In this document: piece by piece, positions 1,449 through 26,081 of the stretch
Position numbering within the stretch: position 1 is the stretch's first letter
How the letters are laid out: the number at the start of each line of letters is the position of its first letter
IMG/VR virus record: IMGVR_UViG_2526164670_000014
Strand: one strand, 5' to 3'
Source: a virus
Lineage: Duplodnaviria; Heunggongvirae; Uroviricota; Caudoviricetes
DNA: 36,225 bases
Notes under the pieces: generated by a model
Database searches by the model: none
What the model was told of the DNA's origin: nothing
The model's input: only the letters and a program-made list of their open reading frames with translations
Made by a program: the position numbers and the translations under genes

Positions 1449-2018
1449 TTATTTAACATACTTGACTGTTAAACTTATAATTTTACCAATTATTTCAATG
1501 TCTTCTATCTTACATTCGAAGGCTCTGTTTCCACCCTCGACGAAGATTCTTCCACCGGGTAAACGAGTAATGTCACGGATCGTTATTTCGCCATCAATAC
1601 TTATTACCCATTTACCATCACGTATATCATCAAATTCCTTATCACAAATAAATTCAGAATTATTATCTGTGATTACAAAAAGATTCTTGAATGCCGACGG
1701 TAGAAATTCTCTATCGAAAATATAAAAACCGTCTTCACACAAGGCCCCATCAGATAATACATATTTAGCAACTTCCATAGTATTTGTATTACCTGAAGTT
1801 TGCTTTGAACCATGCCCGGTTGTGAGCCAATTAAGCGAGGTGCCTGTTTCAAGGGCGCACTGGATTACCCATTCTGCTGGGAATGAGTCACGCATGTAGC
1901 GTGTGGCGAGTGTACTTTTAGAGATTCCTAAATGATCGCACAACGCCTGTCGAGTCTTGAATCCATAAGCTTCTACCATGCGCTCTATGGCGCCTCGTCC
2001 GCCTTTCTCCAAATTCAT
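1449..2018 (-). CDS. CI-type immunity repressor (186-like)
   Basis: Divergent from apl/cII, N-terminal HTH-like segment (GISKSTLATRYMRD); ATG at 2018 preceded by GGAG; position next to int as in P2/186. Confidence 0.75.
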   Translation of the reverse strand: MNLEKGGRGAIERMVEAYGFKTRQALCDHLGISKSTLATRYMRDSFPAEWVIQCALETGTSLNWLTTGHGSKQTSGNTNTMEVAKYVLSDGALCEDGFYIFDREFLPSAFKNLFVITDNNSEFICDKEFDDIRDGKWVISIDGEITIRDITRLPGGRIFVEGGNRAFECKIEDIEIIGKIISLTVKYVK

Positions 2019-2043
2019 GGTCACTCCAAGTGAACTTTTATCT

Positions 2044-2098
2044 TGACGATTTCACTGTGCGATCGTATGTTTGTGGTGTTCACAAAATACAAACGATC
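2044..2098 (+). promoter_or_regulatory. Lysis/lysogeny switch region: rightward promoter candidate overlapping a palindromic operator
   Basis: TTGACG (2044-2049), 16-nt spacer, TATGTT (2066-2071); overlapping dyad gatcgtatgtttgtgg..tgttcacaaaatacaaacgatc (2061-2098) with perfect core TTTGTG-N5-CACAAA. Confidence 0.45.
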
Positions 2099-2143
2099 CG
2101 TATTCGTCCTGATTAATCATCATTAAACGAGGAATGTTGCATC

Positions 2144-2365
2144 ATGAGACCTAACATTTCAATCACTCTTACCACGCCTCATGTGACTATTGAACGCTAT
2201 AGCGAGCTGACAGGGCTATCCATCGATACCATCAATGACATGTTGGCTGATGGACGCCTTATCCGTCACCGTCTGCGCAAAGATAAAAAACGCGAAAAAG
2301 TGATGATCAACATAGCAGCAATGACCGTTGATGCGCTTTCAGAATGCAATCTAAACCTTAATTAG
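2144..2365 (+). CDS. Apl/Cox-like small DNA-binding excisionase/regulator
   Basis: 73-aa basic protein, first gene of the rightward early operon opposite cI; GAGGA 9 nt upstream of the ATG. Confidence 0.6.
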
Positions 2366-2397
2366 TTCGATTCTGAAATACATCAGAGGCATTGACC

Positions 2398-2907
2398 ATG
2401 TTTGATTACCAAGTTTCCAAACATCCACATTTTGATGAAGCCTGTCGTGCATTTGCACTGCGCCACAATCTGGTGCAACTGGCAGAACGTGCAGGCATGA
2501 ATGTGCAGATTCTGCGGAACAAGCTGAACCCAGCTCAGCCTCATTTATTAACCGCACCAGAAATCTGGCTGCTTACCGATCTGACTGAAGATTCAACGCT
2601 GGTAGATGGTTTTCTGGCACAGATTCATTGTCTGCCATGTGTACCGATTAATGAGGTGGCAAAAGAGAAACTGCCACATTACGTCATGAGTGCAACCGCA
2701 GAGATCGGGCGTGTTGCTGCAGGTGCGGTGTCTGGCGATATAAAAACCTGTGCCGGTCGTCGTGATGCTATCAGCAGCATTAACTCTGTAACACGACTGA
2801 TGGCGCTGGCGGCTGTTTCATTGCAGGCCCGTTTACAGGCTAATCCTGCGATGGCGAGTGCAGTTGATACCGTGACTGGCCTCGGTGCTTCATTTGGTTT
2901 GCTGTGA
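2398..2907 (+). CDS. cII: CII-like lysogeny establishment activator (186 CII family)
   Basis: 169 aa from the ATG at 2398; N-terminal [20 protein letters not shown] and overall sequence recalled as close to phage 186 CII; position after apl. Confidence 0.75.
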
Positions 2908-2914
2908 GGTGCTT

Positions 2915-3115
2915 ATGCTGACGAAAGAACCATCATTTGCATCGCTGCTGGTTAAACAAAGCCCGGCAATGCATTACGGTCACGGCTGGATCATGGGGGA
3001 GGATGGTAAACGCTGGCATCCGTGCCGTTCACAAGATGAATTGCTGGCAGAACTATCTACGAAAAAACGGGGGAACAAATGGCTATTGAAGGCGCTGCGG
3101 CGACTGTTCCATTAA
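2915..3115 (+). CDS. Fil-like small protein (putative host filamentation/cell-division inhibitor)
   Basis: 66-aa ORF immediately after cII as in phage 186; GAGG upstream of the ATG at 2915. Confidence 0.45.
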   Translation: MLTKEPSFASLLVKQSPAMHYGHGWIMGEDGKRWHPCRSQDELLAELSTKKRGNKWLLKALRRLFH

Positions 3116-3420
3116 GCCCAGGTGAACGCCTGAATGGACTTAATCATATTGCGGAATTAAGGGCGAAAGTATTTGGCCTGAATATTGAGTCAGAGCTTGA
3201 GCGGTTTATTAAAGATATACGTGATCCACGGGATGTTAATTATGAACGAAATAAACGGGCACTGGCTGCTATATTCTTTATAGCAAAAATTCCAGCTGAA
3301 CGTCATAGCATCAGCATTAATGAGCTGACCACTGACGAAAAGCGGGAGTTGATTAAAGTAATGAATCATCTTCGTGCAGTGGTGAGCTTATTTCCCAGAC
3401 GGCTAGCCATGCCGAATTAG
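3079..3420 (+). CDS. Hypothetical early-region protein
   Basis: 113-aa ORF in the early operon with a G-rich RBS; no motif recognised. Confidence 0.5.
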   Translation: MAIEGAAATVPLSPGERLNGLNHIAELRAKVFGLNIESELERFIKDIRDPRDVNYERNKRALAAIFFIAKIPAERHSISINELTTDEKRELIKVMNHLRAVVSLFPRRLAMPN

Positions 3421-3487
3421 CCAATTAATGAAATTCATGGCGTAAACCCGCCGGGCATTCCTTTATCTAAATTCAGGAGAATTGATT

Positions 3488-3721
3488 ATGCGTAATATTG
3501 AAACCCTCTCGACTAAAACCGGACCGGATGACGCAGGACTTAATATTTTACTGACAGAGGCTCGTCTGGAAGAACGTCGGGCAAGGGCTGAGGCAATGGC
3601 TGCCCGCCTTGATAGCCTTGCGTGTCATATTACATCCCGCCAGCTAAACCACGTCGAAGCAGCAGAACTGCTGCGTGTGACCTCTGAAGCAATCCAGAAC
3701 GAAGCGCAGGAGGTCCACTAA
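3488..3721 (+). CDS. Hypothetical early-region protein
   Basis: 77 aa from the ATG at 3488 with CAGGAG upstream; stop overlaps the next gene's start. Confidence 0.5.
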   Translation: MRNIETLSTKTGPDDAGLNILLTEARLEERRARAEAMAARLDSLACHITSRQLNHVEAAELLRVTSEAIQNEAQEVH

Positions 3722-3948
3722 TGGCTGATGCAATGGATCTCGTACAGCAGCGCGTTGAAGAAGAACGCCAGCGCCATATCCGTGCTGCCCGTGCCAAAAC
3801 GCCGGGCGTGTCCCGCGTGCTTTGCATTGAGTGTGAAGCGCCAATTCCGCCAGCACGCCGCCGCGCCATTCCGGGTGTGCAGCTTTGCATTACCTGTCAG
3901 GAAATCGCAGAGCTGAAAGGCAAACATTACAACGGAGGTGCTGTATGA
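3721..3948 (+). CDS. TraR/DksA-family C4 zinc-finger protein
   Basis: 75 aa with CIECEAPIP...LCITCQ (CxxC-N17-CxxC) characteristic of phage TraR-like proteins. Confidence 0.75.
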   Translation: MADAMDLVQQRVEEERQRHIRAARAKTPGVSRVLCIECEAPIPPARRRAIPGVQLCITCQEIAELKGKHYNGGAV

Positions 3949-4802
3949 GCACCATCCTGAAATGGGCGGGAAATAAAACCGCCATTATGTCCGAACTGAA
4001 AAAGCATCTTCCTGCTGGCCAGCGACTGGTTGAACCTTTCGCGGGTTCCTGTGCTGTGATGATGGAGACGGAGTACCCCAGCTATCTTGTTGCGGATATT
4101 AATCCTGATTTAATCAACCTCTATAAAAAGGTTGCTGCTGATTGTGAATCGTTTATATCTCGCGCCAGAGCTTTATTTGAGGAAGCAAACAGGGAGGTGG
4201 CTTATTACAACATAAGGCAGGAGTTTAATTACTCAACTGAAATTACTGATTTCATGAAAGCGGTATATTTCCTGTATCTCAATCGTCACGGTTACCGTGG
4301 TTTATGTCGCTATAACAAGAGCGGGCATTTCAACATTCCCTACGGTAATTATAAAAATCCGTATTTCCCTGAAAAAGAAATTCGCGCTTTTGCAGAAAAA
4401 GCCCAGCGAGCAACGTTTATCTGCGCCAGCTTTGATGAAACGTTGGCGGTGTTGAAGGCGGGGGATGTGGTGTATTGCGATCCGCCTTATGACGGTACGT
4501 TTTCCGGCTATCACGCTGACGGCTTCACTGAAGATGACCAGTATCACCTGGCATCCGTTCTTGAACATCGGTCATCAGAAGGACATCCGGTCATTGTTTC
4601 TAACAGTGACACATCCCTGATCCGTTCGCTGTATCGCAATTTTACTCACCACTATATCAAGGTAAAACGCAGCATCGGTGTGGCAGCTGGCGAGGGTAAA
4701 TCAGCAACAGAAATCATTGCTGTTTCCGGGCCGCGCTGCTGGGTGGGATTTGATTATTCGCGTGGCGTGGATAATTCTGCCGTGTACGGAGTACGTGCAT
4801 GA
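3945..4802 (+). CDS. dam: DNA N6-adenine methyltransferase (Dam-like, orphan)
   Basis: Motifs PFAGS (SAM binding) and DPPY (catalytic); GGAGG upstream of ATG 3945; no restriction-enzyme partner adjacent. Confidence 0.85.
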
Positions 4803-7213
4803 GCCATGCCGATATGAACAACTGCTGCGGCTTTAACGAGGCTGCCGCATCGTTCTCATGGAACAGCCCGAAAAAGGCCATTAACCCTTATCTGGACCCG
4901 GCGGAAGTTGCGCCGGTTTCTACGCTTTCAAACCTGATCACTCTGTACGCTGCCGATAACGAGCAGGAACAGCTGCGCCGAGAGGCACTGAGTGATCAGG
5001 TCTGGGAGCGTTATTTCTTTAATGAATCCCGTGATCCTGTCCAGCGCGAAATGGAGCAGGATAAGCTCATTAGTCGGGCAAAGCTGGCGCATGAGCAGCA
5101 GCGTTTTAATCCGGATATGGTCATTCTGGCGGACGTCAACGCCCAGCCTTCCCATATCAGCAAGCCCCTGATGCAACGTATTGAATACTTCAGCAACCTG
5201 GGCAAGCCAAAGGCTTATTCCCGCTATTTACGTGAGACGATTAAGCCATGTCTGGAACGACTGGAGCATGTACGCGACAGCCAGCTATCTGCATCTTTTC
5301 GTTTTATGGCAAGCCATGAAGGGCTGGACGGCCTGTTTATCCTGCCTGAAATGAGTCAGGATCAGGTGAAGCGCCTGTCTACCCTTGTCGCTGCGCATAT
5401 GAGCATGTGCCTTGATGCCGCTTGTGGTGATTTGTATGCCACCGATGACGTTAAGCCAGAAGAAATCCGCAAGACATGGGAAAAGGTGGCAGCGGAAACC
5501 CTGCGTCTGGATGTTATCCCGCCTGCGTTTGAGCAACTCCGTCGGAAAAGAAACCGCCGTAAACCCGTGCCCTATGAACTCATTCCGGGTTCGCTGGCGC
5601 GTATGTTGTGCGCCGACTGGTGGTACCGGAAATTATGGAAGATGCGTTGCGAATGGCGGGAAGAGCAGTTGCGTGCTGTCTGCCTTGTCAGCAAAAAAGC
5701 ATCTCCCTATGTCAGCTATGAAGCCGTGCTGCATAAACGTGAGCAGCGCCGTAAGTCGCTGGAGTTTTTCCGTTCTCATGAACTGGTGAACGAAGACGGC
5801 GACACGCTGGACATGGAGGATGTGGTAAACGCCAGCAGCAGCAACCCTGCGCATCGCCGCAATGAGATGATGGCCTGTGTTAAAGGTCTGGAGCTTATCG
5901 CGGAAATGCGCGGTGACTGCGCCGTTTTCTACACCATCACCTGTCCGTCACGTTTCCATTCCACGCTAAATAACGGCAGGCCCAACCCGACCTGGACAAA
6001 TGCGACGGTAAGACAAAGCAGCGATTATCTGGTCGGTATGTTTGCTGCATTTCGTAAGGCGATGCACAAAGCCGGGTTGCGCTGGTATGGCGTGCGGGTG
6101 GCTGAGCCGCATCACGACGGCACAGTTCACTGGCACCTGTTGTGTTTCATGCGCAAAAAAGACCGCCGCGCCATTACTGCATTGTTGCGTAAGTTTGCTA
6201 TCCGTGAAGACCGCGAGGAGCTGGGCAATAACACGGGGCCGCGCTTTAAGTCTGAGCTGATTAACCCGCGCAAAGGAACGCCGACAAGCTACATAGCGAA
6301 ATACATCAGTAAGAACATTGACGGGCGTGGTCTGGCTGGCGAGATCAGCAAGGAAACGGGTAAATCTCTGCGTGATAACGCTGAATACGTGAATGCCTGG
6401 GCGTCTTTGCATCGTGTTCAGCAATTCCGCTTCTTTGGCATTCCGGGGCGTCAGGCTTACCGTGAACTGCGATTGCTGGCTGGTCAGGCGGCAAGGCAAC
6501 AGGGGGACAAAAAAGCAGGTGCGCCGGTACTGGATAACCCGCGCCTTGATGCCATCCTGGCTGCTGCTGATGCTGGTTGTTTTGCCACCTACATCATGAA
6601 GCAGGGCGGCGTACTGGTTCCCCGTAAATATCACCTCATCAGAACCGCTTATGAAATCAACGAAGAGCCGACCGCCTATGGCGATCACGGCATTCGTATT
6701 TATGGCATCTGGTCACCCATTGCAGAGGGCAAGATCTGCACTCATGCAGTGAAGTGGAAAATGGTTCGTAAAGCCGTTGACGTTCAGGAGGCGGCAGCCG
6801 ACCAGGGCGCTTGCGCCCCTTGGACTCGTGGCAATAACTGTCCCCTTGCTGAAAATTTGTACCAACAAGGGAAAGACAAATCAGCTGATGGGGATACCAG
6901 AACGGATATCATCCGTATGGATGACAAGGAGTTGCACGATTATCTGCACAGTATGAACAAAAAAGAGCGCCGAGAACTGGCTGCAAGGTTACGCCTGGTG
7001 AAACCGAAACGGCGTAGAGACTACAAACAGCGAATTACAGACCATCAACGACAGCAGCTCGTCTATGAACTGAAGTCCAGAGGATTTGATGGCAGCGAGA
7101 AAGAGGTCGATTTACTCCTTCGCGGCGGCAGCATTCCGTCAGGAGCAGGCCTGCGAATCTTCTATCGGAACCAGCGTTTGCAGGAAGATGATAAGTGGCG
7201 GAACCTGTATTAA
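4799..7213 (+). CDS. A: Rolling-circle replication initiator/endonuclease (P2 gpA family)
   Basis: 804 aa; HUH motif (TVHWHLL) and paired tyrosines YIAKYISK typical of gpA/phiX174-type Rep; start overlaps the dam stop. Confidence 0.85.
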
Positions 7214-7307
7214 TTACGCGGGTTAACAATTCGTGCTCTTAATAATACCAGGCATATCAGGCTGATGAACGTAAAAAAACGTTTTACATCAGTAAGATTA
7301 TTATATA

Positions 7308-7323
7308 CTGTAAATATAAACAG
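7308..7323 (+). promoter_or_regulatory. LexA (SOS) box CTGT-N8-ACAG
   Basis: taCTGTaaatataaACAGtg, perfect half-sites with AT-rich spacer, 44 bp upstream of the tum-like start codon; TATACT -10-like hexamer overlaps it. Confidence 0.7.
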
Positions 7324-7366
7324 TGGTTATGCATACAGTATTGCTTGTGGTGTCATAGGAGGAAAA

Positions 7367-7555
7367 ATGCAGGACTATTTTTTGGAGTCTTTGAAGCTCC
7401 AACGCATTGATTTTTTTCTTAAGCTTGTAGCGGCTAGTGAGTGTAGTGATGAAGAGAAGGGGCTGGCTTTGCAGTGGGTTTCTGAACTAACAGATGAACT
7501 CATGGCAAAAATCAGAACCCACGAATACAACCGCTCAATGGATGTCATCAGTTGA
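7367..7555 (+). CDS. Tum-like small protein (putative SOS-induced antirepressor, N-terminal module)
   Basis: 62-aa ORF from the ATG at 7367 with AGGAGG RBS, just downstream of the LexA box; the ORF-track start at 7265 would place the LexA box inside the coding sequence, so it was rejected. Confidence 0.5.
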   Translation: MQDYFLESLKLQRIDFFLKLVAASECSDEEKGLALQWVSELTDELMAKIRTHEYNRSMDVIS

Positions 7556-7565
7556 GGTGACTTTT

Positions 7566-7799
7566 ATGCGCATTGAAATAATGATCGATAAAGAGCAGAA
7601 GATTAGCCAGTCTATCCTGGACGCCCTTGAATCCGAGCTTTACCGCAATCTGCGCCCCCTGTATCCAAAAACGGTAATTCGTATCCGCAAAGGTAGCTCT
7701 AACGGTGTGGAACTGACCGGACTGCAACTGGACGAAGAAAGGAAGCAAGTGATGAAAATTATGCAGAAGGTGTGGGAAGACGATAGCTGGCTGCATTAA
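7566..7799 (+). CDS. dinI: DinI-family protein
   Basis: 77 aa from the ATG at 7566; MRIEIMIDKEQ...LDALESEL...RIRKG...KVWEDDSWL resembles E. coli DinI in length and sequence. Confidence 0.8.
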   Translation: MRIEIMIDKEQKISQSILDALESELYRNLRPLYPKTVIRIRKGSSNGVELTGLQLDEERKQVMKIMQKVWEDDSWLH

Positions 7800-7807
7800 G
7801 AAACGTT

Positions 7808-7837
7808 GCCCCCAGTAGGGTTCATTCTGATGGGGGC
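7808..7837 (+). terminator. Putative hairpin terminator after dinI
   Basis: gccccca-N16-tgggggc stem-loop right after the dinI stop; weak T-tract (tagttt). Confidence 0.35.
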
Positions 7838-7973
7838 TAGTTTGAGCAACGAGTGAAACGAGGCGTTAGGTGGGAGGCCATTTTGATAAGTTATCACCCA
7901 CTTTATACCAATAACAGAACTGCGTAATAACTATTTACCTCGGGGGAAGATGTGAGCCATACAAATTTCAGTA

Positions 7974-9032
7974 TTAATTTTCAATTCCCTCCATTTTACA
8001 ATGAGTTTTTTCCCAGAACTGTAATACAACAGGACTAGCCCACTCTGGCATCAGTGCGTTATTTAAAAAACTGAAAACATCATGAGACGCATCAGCATTT
8101 TTTCTAAGGAATTTCCAGCCTTTTCTAGTATTTATCTCAACAATACCTAACCCACCATCATCAAACATATGCATCTTGAATTCAGGATTGTTTACACCTA
8201 GAGATTTTATTTCTTTTATGTATGGACTATCTTCATCCATAAATATTTTCTCTATGTGCTTAGCACAATGATATATTTTATTTCGATAAGTTGATACGCT
8301 CACAGCGGTACGCGCTGTTGTTATTCCCATTCCTAATGGGGCATATGCTTTTCCATCCATCACTACGGGCAGATTTATTCCATTTTTTCTTAAGTTTGCA
8401 ATATCTGAATCTGTAGTTGGATGAATACAAGCTAAGCCTGAAATACCTTTCATTTCAAATATTTCTGCTGCTTCTGGCCAGTTGCGTATGAATGTTTCTA
8501 CCAAATCTCTTTGAGAAAAAAGATTTGGTTCTATGTTTTTATCATGATGTTTTATATCAATAAAAAGCACAGCGTTTGAGTACACCTTCAGGAATAATAC
8601 CCACTCAGCACGATCTGAGTATTTTTTACTTGAACTTACTGGATTTAATGGCAGATGGAGGTGATGAATCCCCCAATCAGCCCATAGGTTATCCGTTCTT
8701 TTCGTCGCCTTTTTACCGCTTGTGTCATTGAATAATGTTAATGTTTTACTCTGATAAGGATTTACATCACCACCAGTAGTAAACAACATCTCGATTCTCT
8801 GCAATCCAACCCTTGCGCCATCGTGAATATTTCCAGGAAATCGATCTGATTTTAAAATTATTCGTTTTTGTGGAGCAATGTAGCGTAAAAGAAAATCACA
8901 CCACCTCAGTAGAGGATCGTGAAGATTTGAGTGCCCGGATTCATCATATAATAACCCAAATGCTTGAATTCCCTTCTCTGAAATTTCGTCAATATCTTTG
9001 ATTAGATCAATATTTTTTCGTGCGTCCAACAT
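7974..9032 (-). CDS. Uncharacterised 352-aa protein in AT-rich accessory island (candidate anti-phage/accessory gene)
   Basis: Long uninterrupted ORF, GGAG 5-8 nt upstream of the ATG; about 28% GC by hand count on one 60-nt line versus about 58% on a structural-gene line; no family recognised by eye. Confidence 0.7.
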   Translation of the reverse strand: MLDARKNIDLIKDIDEISEKGIQAFGLLYDESGHSNLHDPLLRWCDFLLRYIAPQKRIILKSDRFPGNIHDGARVGLQRIEMLFTTGGDVNPYQSKTLTLFNDTSGKKATKRTDNLWADWGIHHLHLPLNPVSSSKKYSDRAEWVLFLKVYSNAVLFIDIKHHDKNIEPNLFSQRDLVETFIRNWPEAAEIFEMKGISGLACIHPTTDSDIANLRKNGINLPVVMDGKAYAPLGMGITTARTAVSVSTYRNKIYHCAKHIEKIFMDEDSPYIKEIKSLGVNNPEFKMHMFDDGGLGIVEINTRKGWKFLRKNADASHDVFSFLNNALMPEWASPVVLQFWEKTHCKMEGIEN

Positions 9033-9426
9033 ACTAACTCCGTTTAAATATAATTTTTTAGTATTTCAGTTAATTAATATCTATACGCCGTTATAGCTGA
9101 ATTTTCCGGTGATTTCAGGGCACATTAACCAATTTAGATAATACTATAGTAATGGTTGGGCTGATTTTTCAAGAACAAAAGTAATTTTCAAGCTTTGTAA
9201 CATGTTGATTTTTCACTTTTCGCTCAAGCGGGCTTTCATCTTTGCAAGCCCATATGTTCGTTTTTCAAGCGATTATTCAGATACGTTAACTTCCCATGGC
9301 AGTGCATGACTATGCTGCATGAAATCGCATGATCGATCGAGGATCGTCTATGCTTAGACCAGCCAGAAATGGCGGGCTTTTGCTCATGTCATGCAGCTGC
9401 ATGAAAACCACTGCATAAAGTGGGCA

Positions 9427-9445
9427 GGCGTGGCGGGGATACGAG
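9427..9445. other. cos-like sequence (candidate cohesive-end site)
   Basis: GGCGTGGCGGGGA matches the first 13 nt of the 19-nt cohesive end as I recall it for phage 186 (GGCGTGGCGGGGAAAGCAT); lies in a GC-rich patch between the two island genes. Confidence 0.35.
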
Positions 9446-9521
9446 CGCGCGCAACGGGTTGTCATTCAAACTCCAATGCTATAAAACTGTGTAATACAAA
9501 CAACTAAAGTAGGTGGCCTCA

Positions 9522-11267
9522 GTGGAACTGCAAGCAAATGCTCGAACCTTAACAAACGTGTTATCTGTAAATAAAAAATATATAGTCCCTAGATTCCAAA
9601 GAGAATATTCTTGGGGGAAGGAACAAGTAAGTGAACTTTGGCATGATATAGTTTCCAATATTCATTACCAGGAGGATGGGCAGTATCAATATGATGAGTA
9701 TTTCATCGGTGCTCTCGTTTTGGTCGGGCAGGAAACTAGCTCTGAGCTGATGATTGTAGATGGTCAACAACGTCTTACGACTCTTACTATATTGTTATCA
9801 GCATTATGTGATAAATTTAAGTTGATAAATGAGTTGGCTGTAGCTCAATCAATATATAATAATTATATATCTGGTATGGATGACGATGGCAGACCTTTTT
9901 TTAAATTAGTTAATGAAACTCCTAAGCCATACTTTCAAAACAACATTCAGCATATTGATAAGAGAAATGAAGGGCCGGAGTCCCTTGAAGAAAGAAACTT
10001 GCAATCTTCATATAATGATTTAACTGAGTATCTTTCAGAAGATAATCTTTGCCAGACATTAGGAGTAGATAGAGAGAAATTTATCTACTTGGAAGCGTTG
10101 AAGGCTGTGCGGGATCAAGTTCTACGGTATCTGAAAGTGATTTATATTACAGTTAATGATGAAGATGAAGCTTATACAATCTTTGAAACTCTGAATGCTA
10201 GGGGATTAAACTTAAGTTATGTAGATCTTATAAAAAACAAATTATTTAAGAAACTGAATGGCACACATCCTGATGATGATGCAAAAACTAAATGGAATAA
10301 AATTAGGCAAATAATTGCTAGTCGTAATGGTGTCGGTTCTATCGAGACATTTATCCGTCATTGGTGGGTGTCAAAATATTCTTATGTAAGTAGTGACACT
10401 CTTTATAAAGCTTTTCTGGATAAGTGGAAAAAAGGCGACATTGATGCTTCAGCGTTCATTGATGAGCTACTTTCAGATGCCGAGATATATGTGAAAATAT
10501 CATCGCCTACAGAACAGGATTTTCCTGAACTGGAAATGAAACCAGTTTATCGAGGTTTGCAGGCATTAAGGCTGTTTAACATATCTCAGAACAAACCATT
10601 TTTGTTATCTTTATTTAAGGCAAGAGCAAGAGGAACGCTAAAACTTGTTGATATGAATAATGCAGTGCTGTCAATTGAACGCTTTCATTTTATGTTTAAT
10701 GCTATTTGTTCATTGCGACCATCAGGTATTGAAAGTGCGTATGCTAAAGCTGCTAGGGCTTTAGTGGATGAAGGTTCTACTAAAGCTAGTAATAGACAAG
10801 TAATAAAGTCTTTGCTTGAAATGTTGGTGAAGAGAAAACCAGACATTAATATGTTTGTTGAAAAGTTTGTTATGCTTAAATTTTCAAATCAAGAGTTGAA
10901 AAATAAAAGGTTGATTCAGTACATTTTTAATAGACTTGAGTTACATCACATGAAAACGGGGGAGTATATGCCTGATTCATTAACATTAGAGCATATTCAG
11001 CCTCAGAGTGTGGGGGATTCTGAAGTATATAGCATGATAGGAAATTTATTACCACTTTCAAAAGAATTAAATGAAAAAGCTGGAAATAAGTCTGTTGTGG
11101 ATAAGCTTGAAATTTATAAACAATCACAATATGCGCTAGTTAAAATTTTTATTGATGAATTTGAAAATAAATATCAAGGAGAATGGACGCCCGATCATAT
11201 GAGATCAAGAGCTGCTGAACTAAGTATTTTATCGTATAATTCAGTATGGAAATTGGGGCGTGAGTAA
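9522..11267 (+). CDS. DUF262 (ParB-like NTPase) plus DUF1524 (His-Me/HNH-like nuclease) fusion protein, GmrSD-like type IV restriction family
   Basis: N-terminal YIVPRFQREYSW and DGQQRLTT motifs (DUF262); C-terminal LTLEHIQPQS...GNLLPLSKELNEKAGNK (DUF1524-like H..N..N); GTG start at 9522 with AGGTGG 5 nt upstream (ORF track begins at 9513); very AT-rich. Confidence 0.8.
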   Translation: MELQANARTLTNVLSVNKKYIVPRFQREYSWGKEQVSELWHDIVSNIHYQEDGQYQYDEYFIGALVLVGQETSSELMIVDGQQRLTTLTILLSALCDKFKLINELAVAQSIYNNYISGMDDDGRPFFKLVNETPKPYFQNNIQHIDKRNEGPESLEERNLQSSYNDLTEYLSEDNLCQTLGVDREKFIYLEALKAVRDQVLRYLKVIYITVNDEDEAYTIFETLNARGLNLSYVDLIKNKLFKKLNGTHPDDDAKTKWNKIRQIIASRNGVGSIETFIRHWWVSKYSYVSSDTLYKAFLDKWKKGDIDASAFIDELLSDAEIYVKISSPTEQDFPELEMKPVYRGLQALRLFNISQNKPFLLSLFKARARGTLKLVDMNNAVLSIERFHFMFNAICSLRPSGIESAYAKAARALVDEGSTKASNRQVIKSLLEMLVKRKPDINMFVEKFVMLKFSNQELKNKRLIQYIFNRLELHHMKTGEYMPDSLTLEHIQPQSVGDSEVYSMIGNLLPLSKELNEKAGNKSVVDKLEIYKQSQYALVKIFIDEFENKYQGEWTPDHMRSRAAELSILSYNSVWKLGRE

Positions 11268-11294
11268 ATGCCGGGGGGGGGCCCAGCATATTTA

Positions 11295-12344
11295 TCAAAA
11301 AGAATCGTTTGTGAAATTTAGGGAGTAGGCATCAAAGCGTATTGCTTCTTCGCCTAGCCAATAGTTAAGTTCTTGTAGCTGTTTCTGCAGGGGCATCAGT
11401 TCGTTGCGGACAAAAACACGACTAGCCTTCTCCACATCACCAAAGCCCCCAACATTATTAGGCATTATCCCCATCATTTGCGGCGGCACACGGTGTGCCG
11501 CCATCATGTCGTCCCGGCTCACGTTCTTGATATTCAGAAACTCATCCTTCGCCGCGACTTCTGACAACGGGATAATCTGAAGCCCGTCCTTTTTGCCGTT
11601 AGGAGAGTACATAAACAGGTTGCGGAAGTTGCCTGGCCCTTTGGCACTTTTCATTGCATTGCGGAGGTTGTTCACATCCTCCTGGTTCTGCGCGGCATCG
11701 GTCATGTACATGATGAAGCCTGCATGACTGCCGTTAATATAATACTTCCGGCGGAACAGCGTGGCGGACTCGTTGAGCAGGGCTGATGGAATGGCAGAAA
11801 GATAACCTGGCAGGCCGTAGATCTCCTGGTTGATGTCCGGTTCCATCAGATGAAAAATGCTGCCTTTCGTGAACTGATACGGCTGGGTTGTCATACCGTA
11901 TTGCACAAACCAGTAGGTATCCAGGTCTAACCCGCGTCGGGTGTATTTTGCCAGAGCAGGCTCAAGGGCGATAACTTCACCGAAGCGGTTCGTGCGTTTC
12001 TCCAGGTAGGCGTTACCAAATACCAGATAGTCCTGCACAAAACGTGAAAAAGCCTGCTGGCTGAGCAGCGGGTGAGGGATGTAGGTACTGGTCAGAATGT
12101 TGCATTTCACCGCAATTGGTGAGCTGTGATGCACGGCGGCGCGGAAGGTTCGTGCCAGTCCGTCAAAGCTGACGGGCGGCTCATACCAGCGGTCCATCTG
12201 TACGCATTCCACATAGTCCAGCAGTTCTCGGCGGTCCAGAACAGGAACGGGATCGCCGAAGCTGAATGCTTCGGCTGTAGTCTGGCTTTTAAGCTGGATC
12301 TGTTTCGTCGCCGCAGCGCGGTTCTTCTTACTCTTTCCCATCAA
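11295..12344 (-). CDS. Q: Portal protein (P2 gpQ family)
   Basis: 349 aa, immediately downstream of and overlapping the terminase ATPase gene; position and size as P2 Q. Confidence 0.85.
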   Translation of the reverse strand: MMGKSKKNRAAATKQIQLKSQTTAEAFSFGDPVPVLDRRELLDYVECVQMDRWYEPPVSFDGLARTFRAAVHHSSPIAVKCNILTSTYIPHPLLSQQAFSRFVQDYLVFGNAYLEKRTNRFGEVIALEPALAKYTRRGLDLDTYWFVQYGMTTQPYQFTKGSIFHLMEPDINQEIYGLPGYLSAIPSALLNESATLFRRKYYINGSHAGFIMYMTDAAQNQEDVNNLRNAMKSAKGPGNFRNLFMYSPNGKKDGLQIIPLSEVAAKDEFLNIKNVSRDDMMAAHRVPPQMMGIMPNNVGGFGDVEKASRVFVRNELMPLQKQLQELNYWLGEEAIRFDAYSLNFTNDSF

Positions 12345-14107
12345 AAAATCTCCACAATATTGCTGGTATTGGCGGATTCGCCCTGCAGCGGTTCGTTAAA
12401 CAATGCGTGCATCGTTGCCCAGGCCAGATCGGCGTGGCTGGCTTCTTCGCTGCGGCTGGCTTCATAGGTCGGGCGGTTGCCGCTGGCGGTGGTTGCGCGA
12501 CGGATTGCCATGAATGACTGCGCAATGTCGGTGTGTCCGGCGTCAAACTCCAGACGGCGGTGGCTGATAATGTCGTAGGCCTTGAGTACCAGGGCGTTTT
12601 TAACGTTGGGGTTGTAGACAAACTCCCGGACGGCTGGAAAAAACGCTTTCACGTTCTCGTAAACCCCGTGACCGACACCCGTCGAGTCGATGCCGATATA
12701 GGTCACGTTGTACTGCTCGGTCAGTTTTTTGATTGCATCAGCCTGGGCGCGGAAGTCCATCCCGCGCCACTGGTGACGCTCAAGAATGCGAAACTTACCG
12801 CCTGGCACGGCTGGCGGTGCCACCACCACGCATCCGGCGCTGTCGCCGTTCTGCGTACCTTTTGCCGGGTCATAACCGATCCACACCTCGCGCCAGCCAA
12901 ACGGGCGCAGGGCCAGTGCATGAAAGTCGGTCCAGACTTCCCAGCTGTCCACCATGCACGCCTGCAGTTCGCTGAGCGGGAACACGGACGCGAGATCGTC
13001 CACGAACTCGCACATCAGCAGGTTCTGATATTCGTCCGGGCTGTATTCCATGCGTAGCTGGTCGAGGTCGAACAGGTTACAGCCGCCGCGCACCGCATCT
13101 TCCACGGTGACTATCTGGCGGTATTGCCCGTCTGCGCACAGCAGGCCGGGGGCCAGATTGTTGTGGGACAGGTCGATGTCCACCTTATCGGCTTTGTTGC
13201 GCCCACGGTTGAACAGCGCACCGGACCAGAACGGATAAGCACTGTGTGTCAGGCTGGATGGCGTGGAAAAATAGGTCTGCCGCCATTTCTTGTGAATAGC
13301 CATACCGGAAGCCACTTTGCGCAGCTCCTGGAATTTCGGGATCCAGAAATATTCATCCAGATACAGGTTGCCGTGGTAACTCTGGGCCGTGCGGGCATTG
13401 GTGCCGAGGAAGTAAAGCGTGGCCCCGTCAGGAAGCACTATCGGATCACCTTTCAGCTCCACCTCGACTTCTTTGGCGAAGTCGATGATGTACTGCTTAA
13501 AGACGTGAGCCTGTGCCTTACTGGCAGAAAGGAAAATCTGGTTACGTCCGGTAAGCAGGGCGTCAATCAGGGCTTCACGGGCAAAGTAAAAGGTCGCGCC
13601 GATCTGGCGTGACTTCAGCAGGTTGCGGATGCGGTTGGTTTTTCCGGCTTCCCACCAGTGGCGCTGGTAGTTGAACATGGAGGAATGGAAAATTTCTTCC
13701 AGCTTCTCAATCTGTTCATCGGTGAAAACGTTCTTTTCCGGCTGACGGCGCGGGCCTTTGTTGCGGTTGGCGACGTTAGGGTTTAAGTCGGCTTCGTTGC
13801 CGCCATTGTTAAACTTGCCGATCCGCGCGTGGCGTTCCGACTGGCGCGCCAGCAGGTCAATCTCTTTGAAATCTTTCCCTTCTTTGTGCTCCTTCATAAT
13901 GAGCTGGCAATAGCGTGCGGCGGTGGTGAGCTGCATCTGATCCAGCGGCCCATAGTCACCCCACTTGTCGCGTTTTTTCCAGCTGTGAACGGTTGCAACT
14001 TTCTCGCCCAGCATTTCAGCAATGCGGGCTACGCGGTATCCCTGAAAGTACAGCAGCATGGCCTGCCGACGGGGATCGAGATCTGCGGGTGTCAGTGTGG
14101 TGTTCAT
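12341..14107 (-). CDS. P: Terminase large (ATPase) subunit (P2 gpP family)
   Basis: 588 aa, divergent from the O-N-M-L capsid operon exactly as in P2; size and position typical. Confidence 0.85.
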   Translation of the reverse strand: MNTTLTPADLDPRRQAMLLYFQGYRVARIAEMLGEKVATVHSWKKRDKWGDYGPLDQMQLTTAARYCQLIMKEHKEGKDFKEIDLLARQSERHARIGKFNNGGNEADLNPNVANRNKGPRRQPEKNVFTDEQIEKLEEIFHSSMFNYQRHWWEAGKTNRIRNLLKSRQIGATFYFAREALIDALLTGRNQIFLSASKAQAHVFKQYIIDFAKEVEVELKGDPIVLPDGATLYFLGTNARTAQSYHGNLYLDEYFWIPKFQELRKVASGMAIHKKWRQTYFSTPSSLTHSAYPFWSGALFNRGRNKADKVDIDLSHNNLAPGLLCADGQYRQIVTVEDAVRGGCNLFDLDQLRMEYSPDEYQNLLMCEFVDDLASVFPLSELQACMVDSWEVWTDFHALALRPFGWREVWIGYDPAKGTQNGDSAGCVVVAPPAVPGGKFRILERHQWRGMDFRAQADAIKKLTEQYNVTYIGIDSTGVGHGVYENVKAFFPAVREFVYNPNVKNALVLKAYDIISHRRLEFDAGHTDIAQSFMAIRRATTASGNRPTYEASRSEEASHADLAWATMHALFNEPLQGESANTSNIVEIF

Positions 14108-14153
14108 GGCACAAACCTACAGCCTTGAATGAAGGCTTTCCCCGCCTGCGGTT

Positions 14154-14171
14154 TGTGTGGTTGTCGGTACA
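14154..14171. promoter_or_regulatory. Late-promoter activator dyad TGT-N12-ACA (Ogr/B-type) in the P/O divergent region
   Basis: TGTgtggttgtcggtACA between divergent P and O; centre is 55.5 nt from the P start codon and 87.5 nt from the O start codon. Confidence 0.55.
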
Positions 14172-14249
14172 AATACCGCGCATTGTTTCACTGCCCCCAT
14201 CACCGCAACCATAAGGCTCCAGTAAGTTTTTTCTAACGGAGCACGGCTC

Positions 14250-15083
14250 ATGACAGTGAAAGCAAAGCGTTTTCGCATCGGGGTGGAAGGTGCCACCACC
14301 GACGGACGCGAAATCCAGCGTGAATGGCTGGAACAGATGGCAGCCAGCTACAACCCGGCGGTGTATACCGCGCTGATTAACCTTGAGCACATCAAGTCTT
14401 ATCTGCCGGACAGCACCTTTAACCGCTACGGCAAGGTGACGGCGCTGTTTGCTGAAGAAATCACGGAAGGTCCGCTGGCAGGCAAGATGGCGCTGTATGC
14501 CGACGTTGAGCCAACGGAGTCCCTGGTGGAGCTGGTGAAAAAAGGCCAGAAATTATTCACCTCTATGGAAGTCAGCCCGAAGTTCGCTGATACGGGCAAA
14601 GCCTACCTGGTCGGCCTGGCTGCCACTGATGACCCTGCCAGTCTGGGCACTGAAATGCTGACATTCAGCGCCAGTGCAGCCCATAACCCACTGGCAAACC
14701 GCAAGCAGAATCCTGCCAATCTCTTTACCGCTGCAGAGGAAACGGTGATCGAACTGGAAGAAATCCAGGACGACAAACCGTCCCTGTTTGCCCGTGTCAC
14801 GGCGCTGTTTACCAAAAAAGAGCAGTCCGATGACGCCCGGTTCTCTGATGTGCATAAGGCCGTGGAGCTGGTCGCCACTGAGCAGCAGAACCTGAGCGCA
14901 CGCACCGAAAAATCCCTGTCTGAGCAGGAAGAACGCCTGTCTGAGCTGGAGACTGCCCTGCAGGCACAGCAAACCGCCTTTAACGAACTGGTGGACAAGC
15001 TGAGTCATGAAGACAGCCGCCAGGACTACCGCCAGCGTGCAACAGGCGGTAACGCCCCCGCTGACACTCTGACCAATTGCTGA
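14250..15083 (+). CDS. O: Capsid scaffolding protein (P2 gpO family)
   Basis: 277 aa, first gene of the rightward capsid operon; acidic, coiled-coil-rich C-terminal half. Confidence 0.85.
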   Translation: MTVKAKRFRIGVEGATTDGREIQREWLEQMAASYNPAVYTALINLEHIKSYLPDSTFNRYGKVTALFAEEITEGPLAGKMALYADVEPTESLVELVKKGQKLFTSMEVSPKFADTGKAYLVGLAATDDPASLGTEMLTFSASAAHNPLANRKQNPANLFTAAEETVIELEEIQDDKPSLFARVTALFTKKEQSDDARFSDVHKAVELVATEQQNLSARTEKSLSEQEERLSELETALQAQQTAFNELVDKLSHEDSRQDYRQRATGGNAPADTLTNC

Positions 15084-23948: not shown

Positions 23949-24392
23949 ATGAATCAATATATTTATTCCCCTTCGGAAAATGCATTTTATGCTGTTAATT
24001 TAAAAAATACTTATGAAGTAAATGGAACATGGCCCGCTGATGCATTAGATATTCCTGATGACATTTCTGTAAAATATATGGCGGAACCGCCACAAGGGAA
24101 AATCCGAGTTGCAGGGGAAAATGGTTTTCCCACATGGGCTGAAATACCTCCACCATCACATGAGGAACTTATTGAACAGGCCGAATCAGAGAGGCAATTA
24201 TTGATTAACCATGCCAACGAATACATGAACAGTAGGCAATGGTCTGGTAAAGCAGCTATTGGTCGCCTGAAGGGGGACGAGCTGGCGCAATATAATTTGT
24301 GGCTGGATTATCTGGACGCACTGGAACTGGTCGATACTTCCGGGGCGCCAGATATTGAATGGCCTACGCCTCCGGCAGTTCAGGCCAGATGA
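23949..24392 (+). CDS. G: Tail fibre assembly chaperone (P2 gpG family), orientation A
   Basis: 147 aa immediately after H, inside the invertible segment. Confidence 0.75.
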   Translation: MNQYIYSPSENAFYAVNLKNTYEVNGTWPADALDIPDDISVKYMAEPPQGKIRVAGENGFPTWAEIPPPSHEELIEQAESERQLLINHANEYMNSRQWSGKAAIGRLKGDELAQYNLWLDYLDALELVDTSGAPDIEWPTPPAVQAR

Positions 24393-24966
24393 CATCCGGC
24401 GCTGTGCTGGTATTTGTTGCCGTCACCGCGTCAATGTAATCCAGCACAGCGTTAAGCCGGGTTGTTTCTGCCTGCATCAACTTCCGTCCGGCCTGTAATT
24501 TCAGCTGAATCAGACTGATGGAAGCCATTGCAGCATCAATCAGTGACTGACGCTGTGCTTCTGCCGCGTCTACTGCGGCGCTATGCTGTGCCTCAGTATC
24601 GGTCACCCATTTCTCACCATCCCATTTATCGTATGGCGTTAATGGGGCGATAGTGGTTGTATTTTCGGGGTAATCACCCGGTGCTGTGATTTCTTTGGCA
24701 TCTCCCGTTTCGGTGTTATAGACGATTTCACCGCGATGGTCTGGCACATATTCCCATGAATTTAAATCTACAGAACGGCAAATTGTATAACCAGCCTTAT
24801 ATGTACTAGGAGCGTCTAAACAGGAATATGCTGGAATACCGACACCCACTGCAAGATATTCAGTTGATGCAGAAATATATTCCCGAGTTTCACCATCGTA
24901 GTTATAAACGGTAATATTCCCCGCCTTCGTGGCAATAAACTCGCTATTTAATACTGCGTTATCCAT
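24364..24966 (-). CDS. Alternative tail fibre assembly chaperone (G'), orientation B
   Basis: 200-aa ORF on the opposite strand, convergent with G and downstream of the alternative fibre cassette; C-terminal block similar to the G C-terminus (W..YLDAL/AVLDYIDAV..T...PDI.WP.PP). Confidence 0.7.
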   Translation of the reverse strand: MDNAVLNSEFIATKAGNITVYNYDGETREYISASTEYLAVGVGIPAYSCLDAPSTYKAGYTICRSVDLNSWEYVPDHRGEIVYNTETGDAKEITAPGDYPENTTTIAPLTPYDKWDGEKWVTDTEAQHSAAVDAAEAQRQSLIDAAMASISLIQLKLQAGRKLMQAETTRLNAVLDYIDAVTATNTSTAPDVIWPELPEA

Positions 24967-25445
24967 TATGCAGCCCTCACGATAAAGTTAAATGCAATAT
25001 TTCGTGGACGGGTCTCACTCCCACCAGTATTACCGATACTCCCTCGTGAATGAAGTGTCGGTGATGGGATCAGACTCCCTCCTGTATTTGTGGCATCAAG
25101 TCCCCGTCCTTGTGTGTATGTTTTTTTGAAAATCGTAGCCAGTTCCCATTCATCTTTTGTGTCGTAACCATCATTGGCAACAACAATATGGCGGTGTTTT
25201 TCCAGCATCCCAGCCTGAAGGCTCAATAAAGCACGTCCAGCATCAATACCACGCCCGTCATCCCAGCCACGAATAAACTCACCACGTAAATCTGGCAATT
25301 TATTTGTCGGGTAAGCCTTTGCCAGTTCCGGGTATTCTTCAGCAGAAAAAGCTGCTCCGTTGCATTTCAGCCAGCCTGTTGGCGGAGTGGCTGAAGGCCA
25401 CGGAACAGGGACACCAACAGGTAATGCAGAGCCTTCTCCCAAACC
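24966..25445 (-). CDS. Alternative tail-fibre C-terminal cassette (Hv'), promoterless until inversion
   Basis: Reverse-strand ORF beginning at crossover site 2 in the same frame as H relative to the shared GLGE codons; contains tail-fibre receptor-binding motifs (PTGW..C.G...S..EYPEL...LPDLRGEFIRG). Confidence 0.7.
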   Translation of the reverse strand, partial: GLGEGSALPVGVPVPWPSATPPTGWLKCNGAAFSAEEYPELAKAYPTNKLPDLRGEFIRGWDDGRGIDAGRALLSLQAGMLEKHRHIVVANDGYDTKDEWELATIFKKTYTQGRGLDATNTGGSLIPSPTLHSRGSIGNTGGSETRPRNIAFNFIVRAA

Positions 25446-25459
25446 AACGTTTAAGAAAA
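25434..25459 (+). repeat. Invertase crossover site 2 (gix/hix/cix-like 26-bp site)
   Basis: TTCTCCCAAACC-AA-CGTTTAAGAAAA; inverted relative to site 1; about 55 bp upstream of the invertase start. Confidence 0.7.
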
Positions 25460-25514
25460 TGCAGCGATTACGACTAACTGGCATCATCCCCGGTTTTTAT
25501 TCAGGGGATTGATC

Positions 25515-26081
25515 ATGCTTATTGGCTATGTACGCGTGTCAACAAATGACCAGAACACCGATTTGCAACGTAATGCACTGAACTGCGCGGGATGTGAGCG
25601 GATTTTTGAGGACAAAATCAGTGGCACTAAGTCCGACAGACCGGGGCTTAAAAAACTGCTCAGGACACTATCGGCAGGTGACACACTGGTTGTCTGGAAG
25701 CTGGACAGGTTGGGGCGCAGTATGCGGCATCTTGTTACGCTGATAGAAGAGTTGCGCCAGCGCGGCGTGAATTTCCGAAGCCTGACTGACAGTATTGATA
25801 CCAGTACCCCAATGGGCCGTTTCTTTTTTCATGTCATGGGTGCCCTGGCTGAAATGGAACGCGAACTGATAGTTGAACGTACCAGGGCAGGGCTGGCTGC
25901 AGCTCGTGCTAAAGGCAGAGTAGGTGGACGCCGTCCTAAGTTGACTACCGAACAGTGGGCACAGATTGGACGTTTACTCGAGGCCGGAGAATCAAGACAG
26001 CGTATTGCACTGATTTTTGATGTAGGCGTTTCTACCATTTATAGAAAATTTCCGGCAAATAAGAGCAATGAATCTCCCTGA
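25515..26081 (+). CDS. Serine DNA invertase (Gin/Cin/Pin/Hin family)
   Basis: 188 aa from the ATG at 25515; N-terminal GYVRVSTNDQ with catalytic Ser, resolvase core, C-terminal HTH (GESRQRIALIFDVGVSTIYRKF). Confidence 0.9.
   Translation: MLIGYVRVSTNDQNTDLQRNALNCAGCERIFEDKISGTKSDRPGLKKLLRTLSAGDTLVVWKLDRLGRSMRHLVTLIEELRQRGVNFRSLTDSIDTSTPMGRFFFHVMGALAEMERELIVERTRAGLAAARAKGRVGGRRPKLTTEQWAQIGRLLEAGESRQRIALIFDVGVSTIYRKFPANKSNESP

Follow-up and report, generated by a model that had tools for sequence, protein, structure and literature searches.

Two predicted single-gene immunity cassettes, PD-T4-7 and a GmrSD/HEC-06-type enzyme, on either side of cos in an Escherichia coli P2-family prophage

The sequence under study is the IMG/VR record IMGVR_UViG_2526164670_000014, a stretch of 36,225 nucleotides hereafter called the window, and the analysis concerns its positions 7800–11294, which an original prediction had described as an AT-rich accessory island set between the tum/dinI module and the portal gene Q. 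This placement is accurate, as the DinI-family gene extends as far as 7799 and the portal gene starts at 11295, and so is the account of two large divergent genes, one encoding 352 residues on the minus strand (ORF352, ORF standing for open reading frame) and the other up to 584 residues on the plus strand (from 9513), which leave between them a gap of 480 bp (9033–9512) holding a cos-like motif (Table 1). The window is apparently a complete Fels-2/186-like, P2-family prophage of E. coli, running from the integrase gene (1–1131) through CI, a Dam-type methylase, gpA and the late genes into the host genes ybjL/ybjM, and its positions 1974–15032 are identical to the reverse complement of the E. 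coli draft contig AERU01000030.1 (GCA_000193995.2). We find that the region is very probably the cos-adjacent gpA–gpQ defence hotspot, occupied by two unrelated single-gene immunity cassettes, PD-T4-7 and a GmrSD/HEC-06-type enzyme, which are split by a 151-bp cos block; both genes and the hotspot have already been described.

Table 1. Positions of the cargo genes, the cos region and the flanking features in the window.
Feature	Position	Strand	Basis or remark
gpA	4799–7213		Phage_GPA match
LexA box, perfect (CTGT-N8-ACAG; CTGTAAATATAAACAG)	7308–7323	+	Single exact match; context flank
62-aa gene	7367–7555	+	Left conserved flank; public gene calls
DinI-like gene, 77 aa	7566–7799	+	Pfam DinI, E 2.5e-22; left conserved flank
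G+C-rich hairpin after dinI	7808–7837		-20 kcal/mol, z -2.2
Right-end cassette	7810–9301		~1.5 kb, 33–36% GC; between DinI and cos block
Predicted PD-T4-7 gene, 352 aa	7974–9032	-	Single-gene abortive-infection protein; N-half of predicted RelE/HigB fold, C-half an uncharacterised domain
Candidate sigma-70-like promoter for PD-T4-7 (TTGAAA-18-TATAGT)	9143–9172	-	10/12 consensus match only
Conserved cos block, joint of the two cassettes	9302–9452	+	151 bp, 54% GC; three-way alignment
Predicted 19-nt cohesive end (GGCGTGGCGGGGATACGAG)	9427–9445	+	Positional alignment to annotated P2 cosL and 186 cos
Left-end cassette	9453–11294		~1.84 kb, 34.5% GC; between cos and Q
Predicted GmrSD-like type IV restriction enzyme, HEC-06 family, 581 aa	9522–11267	+	Longest ORF, from 9513, has 584 aa
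Portal gene Q	11295–12341	-	Pfam Phage_portal; right conserved flank (context)

The cargo is set apart from the rest of the prophage by its base composition, both in regional GC content and at third codon positions (GC3). The GC content amounts to 36.1% in ORF352, 34.5% in the 584-aa frame (ORF584) and 36.4% in the whole island, against 56.2% in the late genes and 56.8% in the terminase gene P, a difference of around 20 points between cargo and late genes that is far beyond chance. The corresponding GC3 values are 27.5% and 27.7% for the two genes, compared with 62% in Q and 71% in P. The contrast of about 28% with about 58% that had been proposed thus holds in its direction, whereas the figure of 28% does not describe whole genes and fits GC3, or the lowest of the single 60-nt lines, which vary between 22% and 50% GC.

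Analysis of the amino acid sequence of ORF352 evidenced no match in Pfam, NCBIfam or PHROGs; in PADLOC, the hidden Markov model (HMM) of PD-T4-7 (PDLC04066) aligns with residues 1–342 over profile positions 1–335 of 337, with an E value of 8.7e-144. From this profile match we identify the protein as PD-T4-7, a system originating from E. coli UMB0103 (RRN43039.1) and reported by Vassallo et al. 2022 (PMC9519451). In that study it was selected on T4, cloned as one ORF of 1059 nt with flanks of 167 and 424 bp, found to protect E. coli K-12 alone, and classed both as an abortive infection (Abi) system and as "RelE toxin-like"; the 10 T4-selected systems of the same study are generally also protective against T2 and T6. 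The geometry of the published clone fits positions ~7807–9456 of the window, and its 424-bp upstream flank includes the promoter candidate of Table 1. The likeness to the UMB0103 system thus comprises the full-length HMM match, the size of 352 aa, the location in a P2 prophage, the flank geometry and the single-gene character, the difference being that the neighbour across cos is here unlike that of most sequenced carriers.

We have collected 129 homologues of PD-T4-7, all of them of ~340 aa, proteobacterial and unannotated, and an alignment of 86 of these reveals 13 invariant residues, among which R57, D114, W120, H124, H126, D159 and H163, together with a conserved WADWGIHHLHL motif. The homologues from Serratia, Pantoea, Aeromonas and Burkholderia stand alone, with no conserved neighbour. 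Overall PD-T4-7 appears as a single gene without a conserved partner, found with three different neighbours across cos and in unrelated contexts in five other genera. In Pantoea ananatis (CP014207.1, locus 2296–6035) the homologue lies inside an integrative element, amid genes for conjugative transfer (TraU, TraC), and adjoins an 816-aa protein with a weak HATPase_c_3 match. On the Providencia contig SRR965298_68 (locus 3796–6035), a homologue 67% identical is found downstream of a PvuRts1I-like_N + SRA protein, a combination that belongs to the type IV nuclease family dependent on hydroxymethylcytosine, and the pair is inside an integrase/AlpA island also encoding an AAA_15/AAA_21 ATPase pair.

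On the other side of cos, the likelier start of the second gene is the GTG at 9522, which is preceded by an AGGTGG Shine-Dalgarno sequence at 9511–9516 and agrees with public gene calls, so that the protein has 581 residues (ORF581). It comprises the Pfam domains GmrSD_N (E 1e-38) and GmrSD_C (E 1.2e-11), and its best full-length profile is PADLOC HEC-06, matched over residues 1–581 with 301 bits and an E value of 3.8e-90; the matches to SspE (73 bits) and mREase_IV (56 bits) are both partial and N-terminal. The catalytic motifs are intact, with DGQQR at residues 80–84, EHIQP at 490–494 and downstream Asn residues at 517–523, and the first two correspond to residues Q79/R80 and E471/H472 of HEC-06, whose mutation abolishes defence according to the preprint describing them (bioRxiv 10.1101/2024.01.29.577857). 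These features identify the protein, at the sequence level, as a HEC-06-family member of the GmrSD-like type IV restriction enzymes. With the HEC-06 and GmrSD-like enzymes (Payne et al. 2024 preprint; Eco94GmrSD, BrxU, SspE, DndI) it shares the arrangement DUF262-linker-DUF1524 in one polypeptide and the combination of a DGQQR NTPase motif with a (D/E)H His-Me nuclease motif. It is distant from the solved members, the closest by sequence being DndI (9jfl; E 1.5e-12), followed by SspE (E 4e-4), both matched over the N-terminal domain only, and its gene stands outside any Hma, BREX or Dnd system. The exact protein is found on 791 contigs. With full-length matches of defence-system HMMs to both genes, the suggestion that this position is an anti-phage hotspot is borne out.

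The cos-like motif in the gap has as its core GGCGTGGCGGGGA at 9427–9439, which occurs once in the window. These are the first 13 of the 19 nucleotides of the annotated cohesive end of phage 186 (GGCGTGGCGGGGAAAGCAT), and they agree with the first 13 nucleotides of P2 cosL (GGCGAGGCGGGGAAAGCAC) at 12 of 13 positions; a GCGCGC-type stretch follows the core alike in the window, in 186 and in P2. A search with the 19-nt P2 cosL allowing up to 3 mismatches returned no match in the window because the last 6 nucleotides differ, and it is the 13-nt core that located the site. From this homology we infer that positions 9427–9445 are cos and would be cleaved there. Since the cos homologue stands between the two cargo genes, these would lie at opposite ends of the virion DNA, as had been proposed. 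The core is part of a conserved block which is 85–88% identical to the equivalent regions of Fels-2, RE-2010, Klebsiella phages and E. coli elements, the sides flanking it being unalignable; in fact, this block is the sole conserved part of the DinI–Q interval among relatives. In P2 and 186 the end of Q is ~170 bp from the cohesive end, with a terminator alone and no gene between them, whereas here, and likewise in Fels-2, a gene is inserted at this point.

We have searched 5,426 complete E. coli genomes for the two halves of the region and none of them carries both together. Positions 7800–9452 are found in ~48 genomes at 99.6–99.9% identity and positions 9302–11294 in six at ~98.8%, the overlap of the two sets of matches being the cos block. 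The right-end cassette is 99.7–100% identical to that of ET350 and of 46 other E. coli genomes, and the left-end cassette is 99.3–100% identical to those of WL7562 and five other E. coli genomes; the cos block is 100% identical to ET350 and ~90% to WL7562, and the junction of the cassettes is at 9452/9453. At the opposite edge, homology to relatives stops between 7797 and 7872, and in relatives with an empty slot the dinI stop is only ~70 bp from the cos block. The partners across cos vary. In 47 E. coli genomes PD-T4-7 faces a different HEC-06-family gene, 37% identical to the one described here, and in NCTC8623 it faces retron Ec67; in WL7562 the GmrSD gene of the window faces two hypothetical genes, while J3 combines a 141-aa gene right of cos with the 37%-identical GmrSD variant on the left. 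In NCTC8623 (locus 5766–7646) it is a retron Ec67-family reverse transcriptase/endonuclease that fills the cos–Q slot, the PD-T4-7 cassette of that genome being 99.4% identical.

Clearly, the two genes are separate, independently exchangeable single-gene cassettes, because each is found at 99–100% identity with other partners. The term accessory island therefore remains appropriate in what concerns AT-richness and variability, but not as the description of a single unit. Comparison in 300-bp bins yields 99.3–100% identity to copies in other E. coli inside each cassette and 94–98% in the backbone, in agreement with the recent acquisition that had been postulated. Their assembly probably proceeded by recombination, with homology provided by the cos block and by the flanks at DinI and Q.

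The variability of the slot is also evident from a census of 80 sampled IMG/VR loci whose Q protein is at least 93% identical, the cos core being found in 75 of them. The cos–Q slot is empty in 2 of these 75 and otherwise contains 46 cassette types of 0.5–3.5 kb with a median GC of 36%; the DinI–cos slot is empty in 15 loci and displays 19 types, the empty state counting as one, with a median GC of 41%. As many as 58 combinations of the two slots occur among 65 loci. Further, 60 phage records share the flanks at 83–94% identity and none has the cargo, so that this is indeed a variable slot of the P2/186 synteny, and the same two genes are clearly far from being conserved throughout P2-like phages. 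The left slot obeys a regular layout: in all 45 cos–Q cassette types examined the main ORF reads from cos towards Q and is convergent with it, and all 45 start directly after cos + CGCGCG(C), each with its own unrelated AT-rich leader, as does the left-end cassette of the window after cos + CGCGCGC. Right-slot cassettes occur in both orientations (12 vs 6). Other left-slot cargo comprises AbiU (in Fels-2), AIPR, Abi-alpha and HEPN proteins.

These properties are those of a known locus. Rousset et al. 2022 (PMC9122126) describe the cos-adjacent gpA–gpQ hotspot with 1,650 arrangements in 18,150 loci, many of them with more than one system; the same position is hotspot #1 of Vassallo et al. 2022, with four of their systems (PMC9519451), and the hotspot is the subject of a preprint by Moura de Sousa et al. 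2026. The region studied here resembles it in its position beside cos, in a variable, low-GC and defence-rich content that often includes more than one system, and in the rapid exchange of cassettes between near-identical backbones; nothing essential differs, apart from the tum/DinI module being placed, in this lineage, between gpA and the cargo. The site of the GmrSD gene also corresponds to that of retrons Ec67 and Ec86 in 186-related prophages, where the segment from cos to the terminator that follows the portal gene is replaced by foreign DNA (Dodd and Egan 1996, Virology 219:115, as cited in PMC6868368), the cargo being a retron there and a nuclease here. In respect to P2, the original prediction had drawn a parallel with old and tin, and the analogy is valid for position, as these are lysogenic-conversion exclusion genes in the gpA–cos interval, tin also blocking T-even phages; it does not extend to homology, since no Old or Tin models are among the PADLOC or Pfam matches of either cargo protein. 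Moreover, old and tin are both right of cos, the interval from cos to Q being devoid of genes in P2.

We have further analysed the predicted conformation of ORF352. The AlphaFold2 (AF2) model has a pLDDT of 90.8, and residues ~40–165 adopt a predicted RelE-type α/β fold, for which the comparison figures are 9.0 with HigB1, 8.2 with HigB, 7.7 with RelE, 7.0 with YoeB, 6.4 with YafQ, 6.0 with the ribosome-dependent RNase Cami1 and 5.0–5.8 with ParE. Foldseek searches of the PDB and BFVD with this model gave nothing significant, the sole high-probability match being YafQ (probability 0.8, TMt 0.58). The invariant H124 and H126 fall on predicted strand 122–126, and D159 and H163 on strand 154–162 or at its end. 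The likeness to the RelE/HigB/YafQ type II toxins resides in this predicted fold, and Cami1 offers a parallel, its RelE-like RNase being joined to a sensor domain within one protein. Unlike type II toxins, ORF352 has no separate antitoxin gene and no sequence-level family membership; indeed, no small adjacent antitoxin-like gene is conserved in any of the PD-T4-7 contexts examined. It differs from both the RelE-type toxins and Cami1 by an extra, uncharacterised domain of 190 residues.

These results suggest a mechanism in which both cassettes would be expressed from the prophage through putative promoters. The N-terminal RelE/HigB-like domain of PD-T4-7 would be a latent ribonuclease, with the invariant H124, H126, D159, H163 and R57 on or adjoining the predicted sheet, and the C-terminal half would restrain it or sense infection. 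Upon infection by a T-even phage, the RNase would bring translation to a halt, with death or arrest of the cell ahead of progeny release. The most likely mechanism is thus abortive infection by a RelE-type RNase restrained or activated by its own C-terminal domain. In ORF581, the DUF262 domain, which bears DGQQR, would hydrolyse nucleoside triphosphates, and the DUF1524 His-Me finger (EHIQP...N) would cut incoming phage DNA, the target being most likely DNA with non-canonical modifications; this would provide direct immunity. A number of observations weigh against this account. The RelE label was based on an HHpred match to YafO at 51% probability (PMC9519451), and the identification of PD-T4-7 was made through the family profile. 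Searching Pfam with the 86 family members at E values up to 1 returned noise only, with no RelE, YafO, HigB or ParE match below E 0.04 and a single member matching ParE_toxin at E 0.04, and the invariant residues were placed by predicted strands. As to expression of the nuclease, a consensus scan and inspection of the 76 bp that separate cos from the start of the GmrSD gene evidenced no convincing sigma-70 promoter. A TTGTCA-15-TATAAA sequence at 9459–9485 was considered for this role and discarded as a poor fit. The search of PDB sequences with the PD-T4-7 profile also returned noise only (MLKL, E 0.04).

The weak ParE_toxin match mentioned above allows a different role for the fold: the RelE/ParE-like domain of ORF352 might act not as a ribosome-dependent RNase but as a ParE-like gyrase poison, or as a non-catalytic binding module in a protein whose C-terminal half is the effector; that half does carry a conserved low-confidence loop (G234–T242). 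We consider this unlikely, as the invariant residues are His and Asp at the predicted sheet or next to it, a placement shared with the active sites of YafQ, HigB and YoeB. ParE does not carry such residues. The arrangement of the locus itself, with two adjacent and divergent genes of similarly low GC, could also be taken as that of one obligate two-component system with a shared divergent control region. This is most improbable and we reject it because the two genes assort independently, each occurring elsewhere with different partners at 99–100% identity; in addition, the genes are separated by a conserved cos block of different ancestry (100% identical to ET350, ~90% to WL7562), and the PD-T4-7 and HEC-06 families function as single genes in published assays.

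A looser association deserves a mention, namely that PD-T4-7 might be preferentially paired or co-selected with modification-dependent (type IV) nucleases, its RelE-fold protein forming a second, abortive layer of defence, or a guard, against T-even phages. It would then fire when a T-even phage evades or inhibits the nuclease, a PrrC-like arrangement made from new parts. In that precedent, EcoprrI restrains PrrC and T4 Stp sets it free. The family does occur beside type IV-type nucleases in three settings described as independent, which are HEC-06 variant A in the window, HEC-06 variant B (37% identical) in the 47 E. coli genomes and one IMG/VR locus, and a PvuRts1I-like/SRA protein encoded in Providencia 330 bp ahead of the homologue, in the same orientation; DUF262 genes occupy 2 of 75 cos–Q slots but are present in 2 of the 3 PD-T4-7 arrangements, which is more than chance would predict. 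The independent arrangements are very few, though, the 47 genomes are near-identical (99.7–100%) and probably reflect a single event, and NCTC8623 pairs PD-T4-7 with a retron. Homologues from Serratia, Pantoea, Aeromonas and Burkholderia have no type IV neighbour, one being absent from five other contexts in all, and defence genes cluster in islands generally. PD-T4-7 also protects E. coli K-12 by itself (PMC9519451). We thus regard a preferential pairing, as a layered anti-T-even defence, as very unlikely, and a guard function of the PrrC kind as having an equally small chance. The interpretation that we retain is that of two unrelated immunity genes in independent cassettes, and both systems are plausibly aimed at T-even-type phages.

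The locus provides a worked example of a P2-family prophage carrying two swappable single-gene immunity systems on either side of cos, and helps both in annotating the E. coli draft genome and in anticipating its resistance to phages; it opens no new question, the observation being real but ordinary. What the analysis adds is a high-confidence structural model that puts the "RelE-like" label of PD-T4-7, weak until then, on firmer ground, cassette boundaries mapped exactly at cos, and a hotspot resolved explicitly into two sub-slots split by cos, with a left boundary that is sharp at cos + CGCGCG(C), as well as an unproven hint that PD-T4-7 tends to adjoin type IV nucleases.

In the left flank, the perfect LexA box is upstream of the 62-aa and DinI-like genes and matches in position the LexA site annotated at p95 in phage 186, which implies that, as there, these two genes form an SOS-controlled tum-like operon. 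The flank (7367–7799) matches phrog_698 and phrog_189, and the 96-aa and 101-aa entries of the program-made ORF list overcall the 62-aa and DinI-like genes. The hairpin that follows dinI, at the limit of the conserved flank, is likely a terminator. On the opposite side, the GmrSD gene and Q converge, with only 27 bp (11268–11294) between their stops; the minus strand of this segment has a hairpin of G/C runs (AUGCUGGGCCCCCCCCCGGCAU; z -2.3) with no clear U-tract, which may be the local counterpart of tQ/tW.

Elsewhere in the prophage, a D12-class (Dam-type) N6-adenine methyltransferase gene is found at 3885–4802, upstream of gpA, and its coexistence with a type IV-type nuclease in one prophage means that the nuclease must tolerate DNA with N6-methyladenine. 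A further region of low GC at 23.5–25.5 kb was considered as a second defence island and rejected, as it is an invertible tail-fibre segment. The corresponding module (23949–26081) comprises two tail-fibre-assembly genes and a tail-collar fragment on opposite strands, and encodes a Hin/Cin-type serine invertase at 25509–26081.

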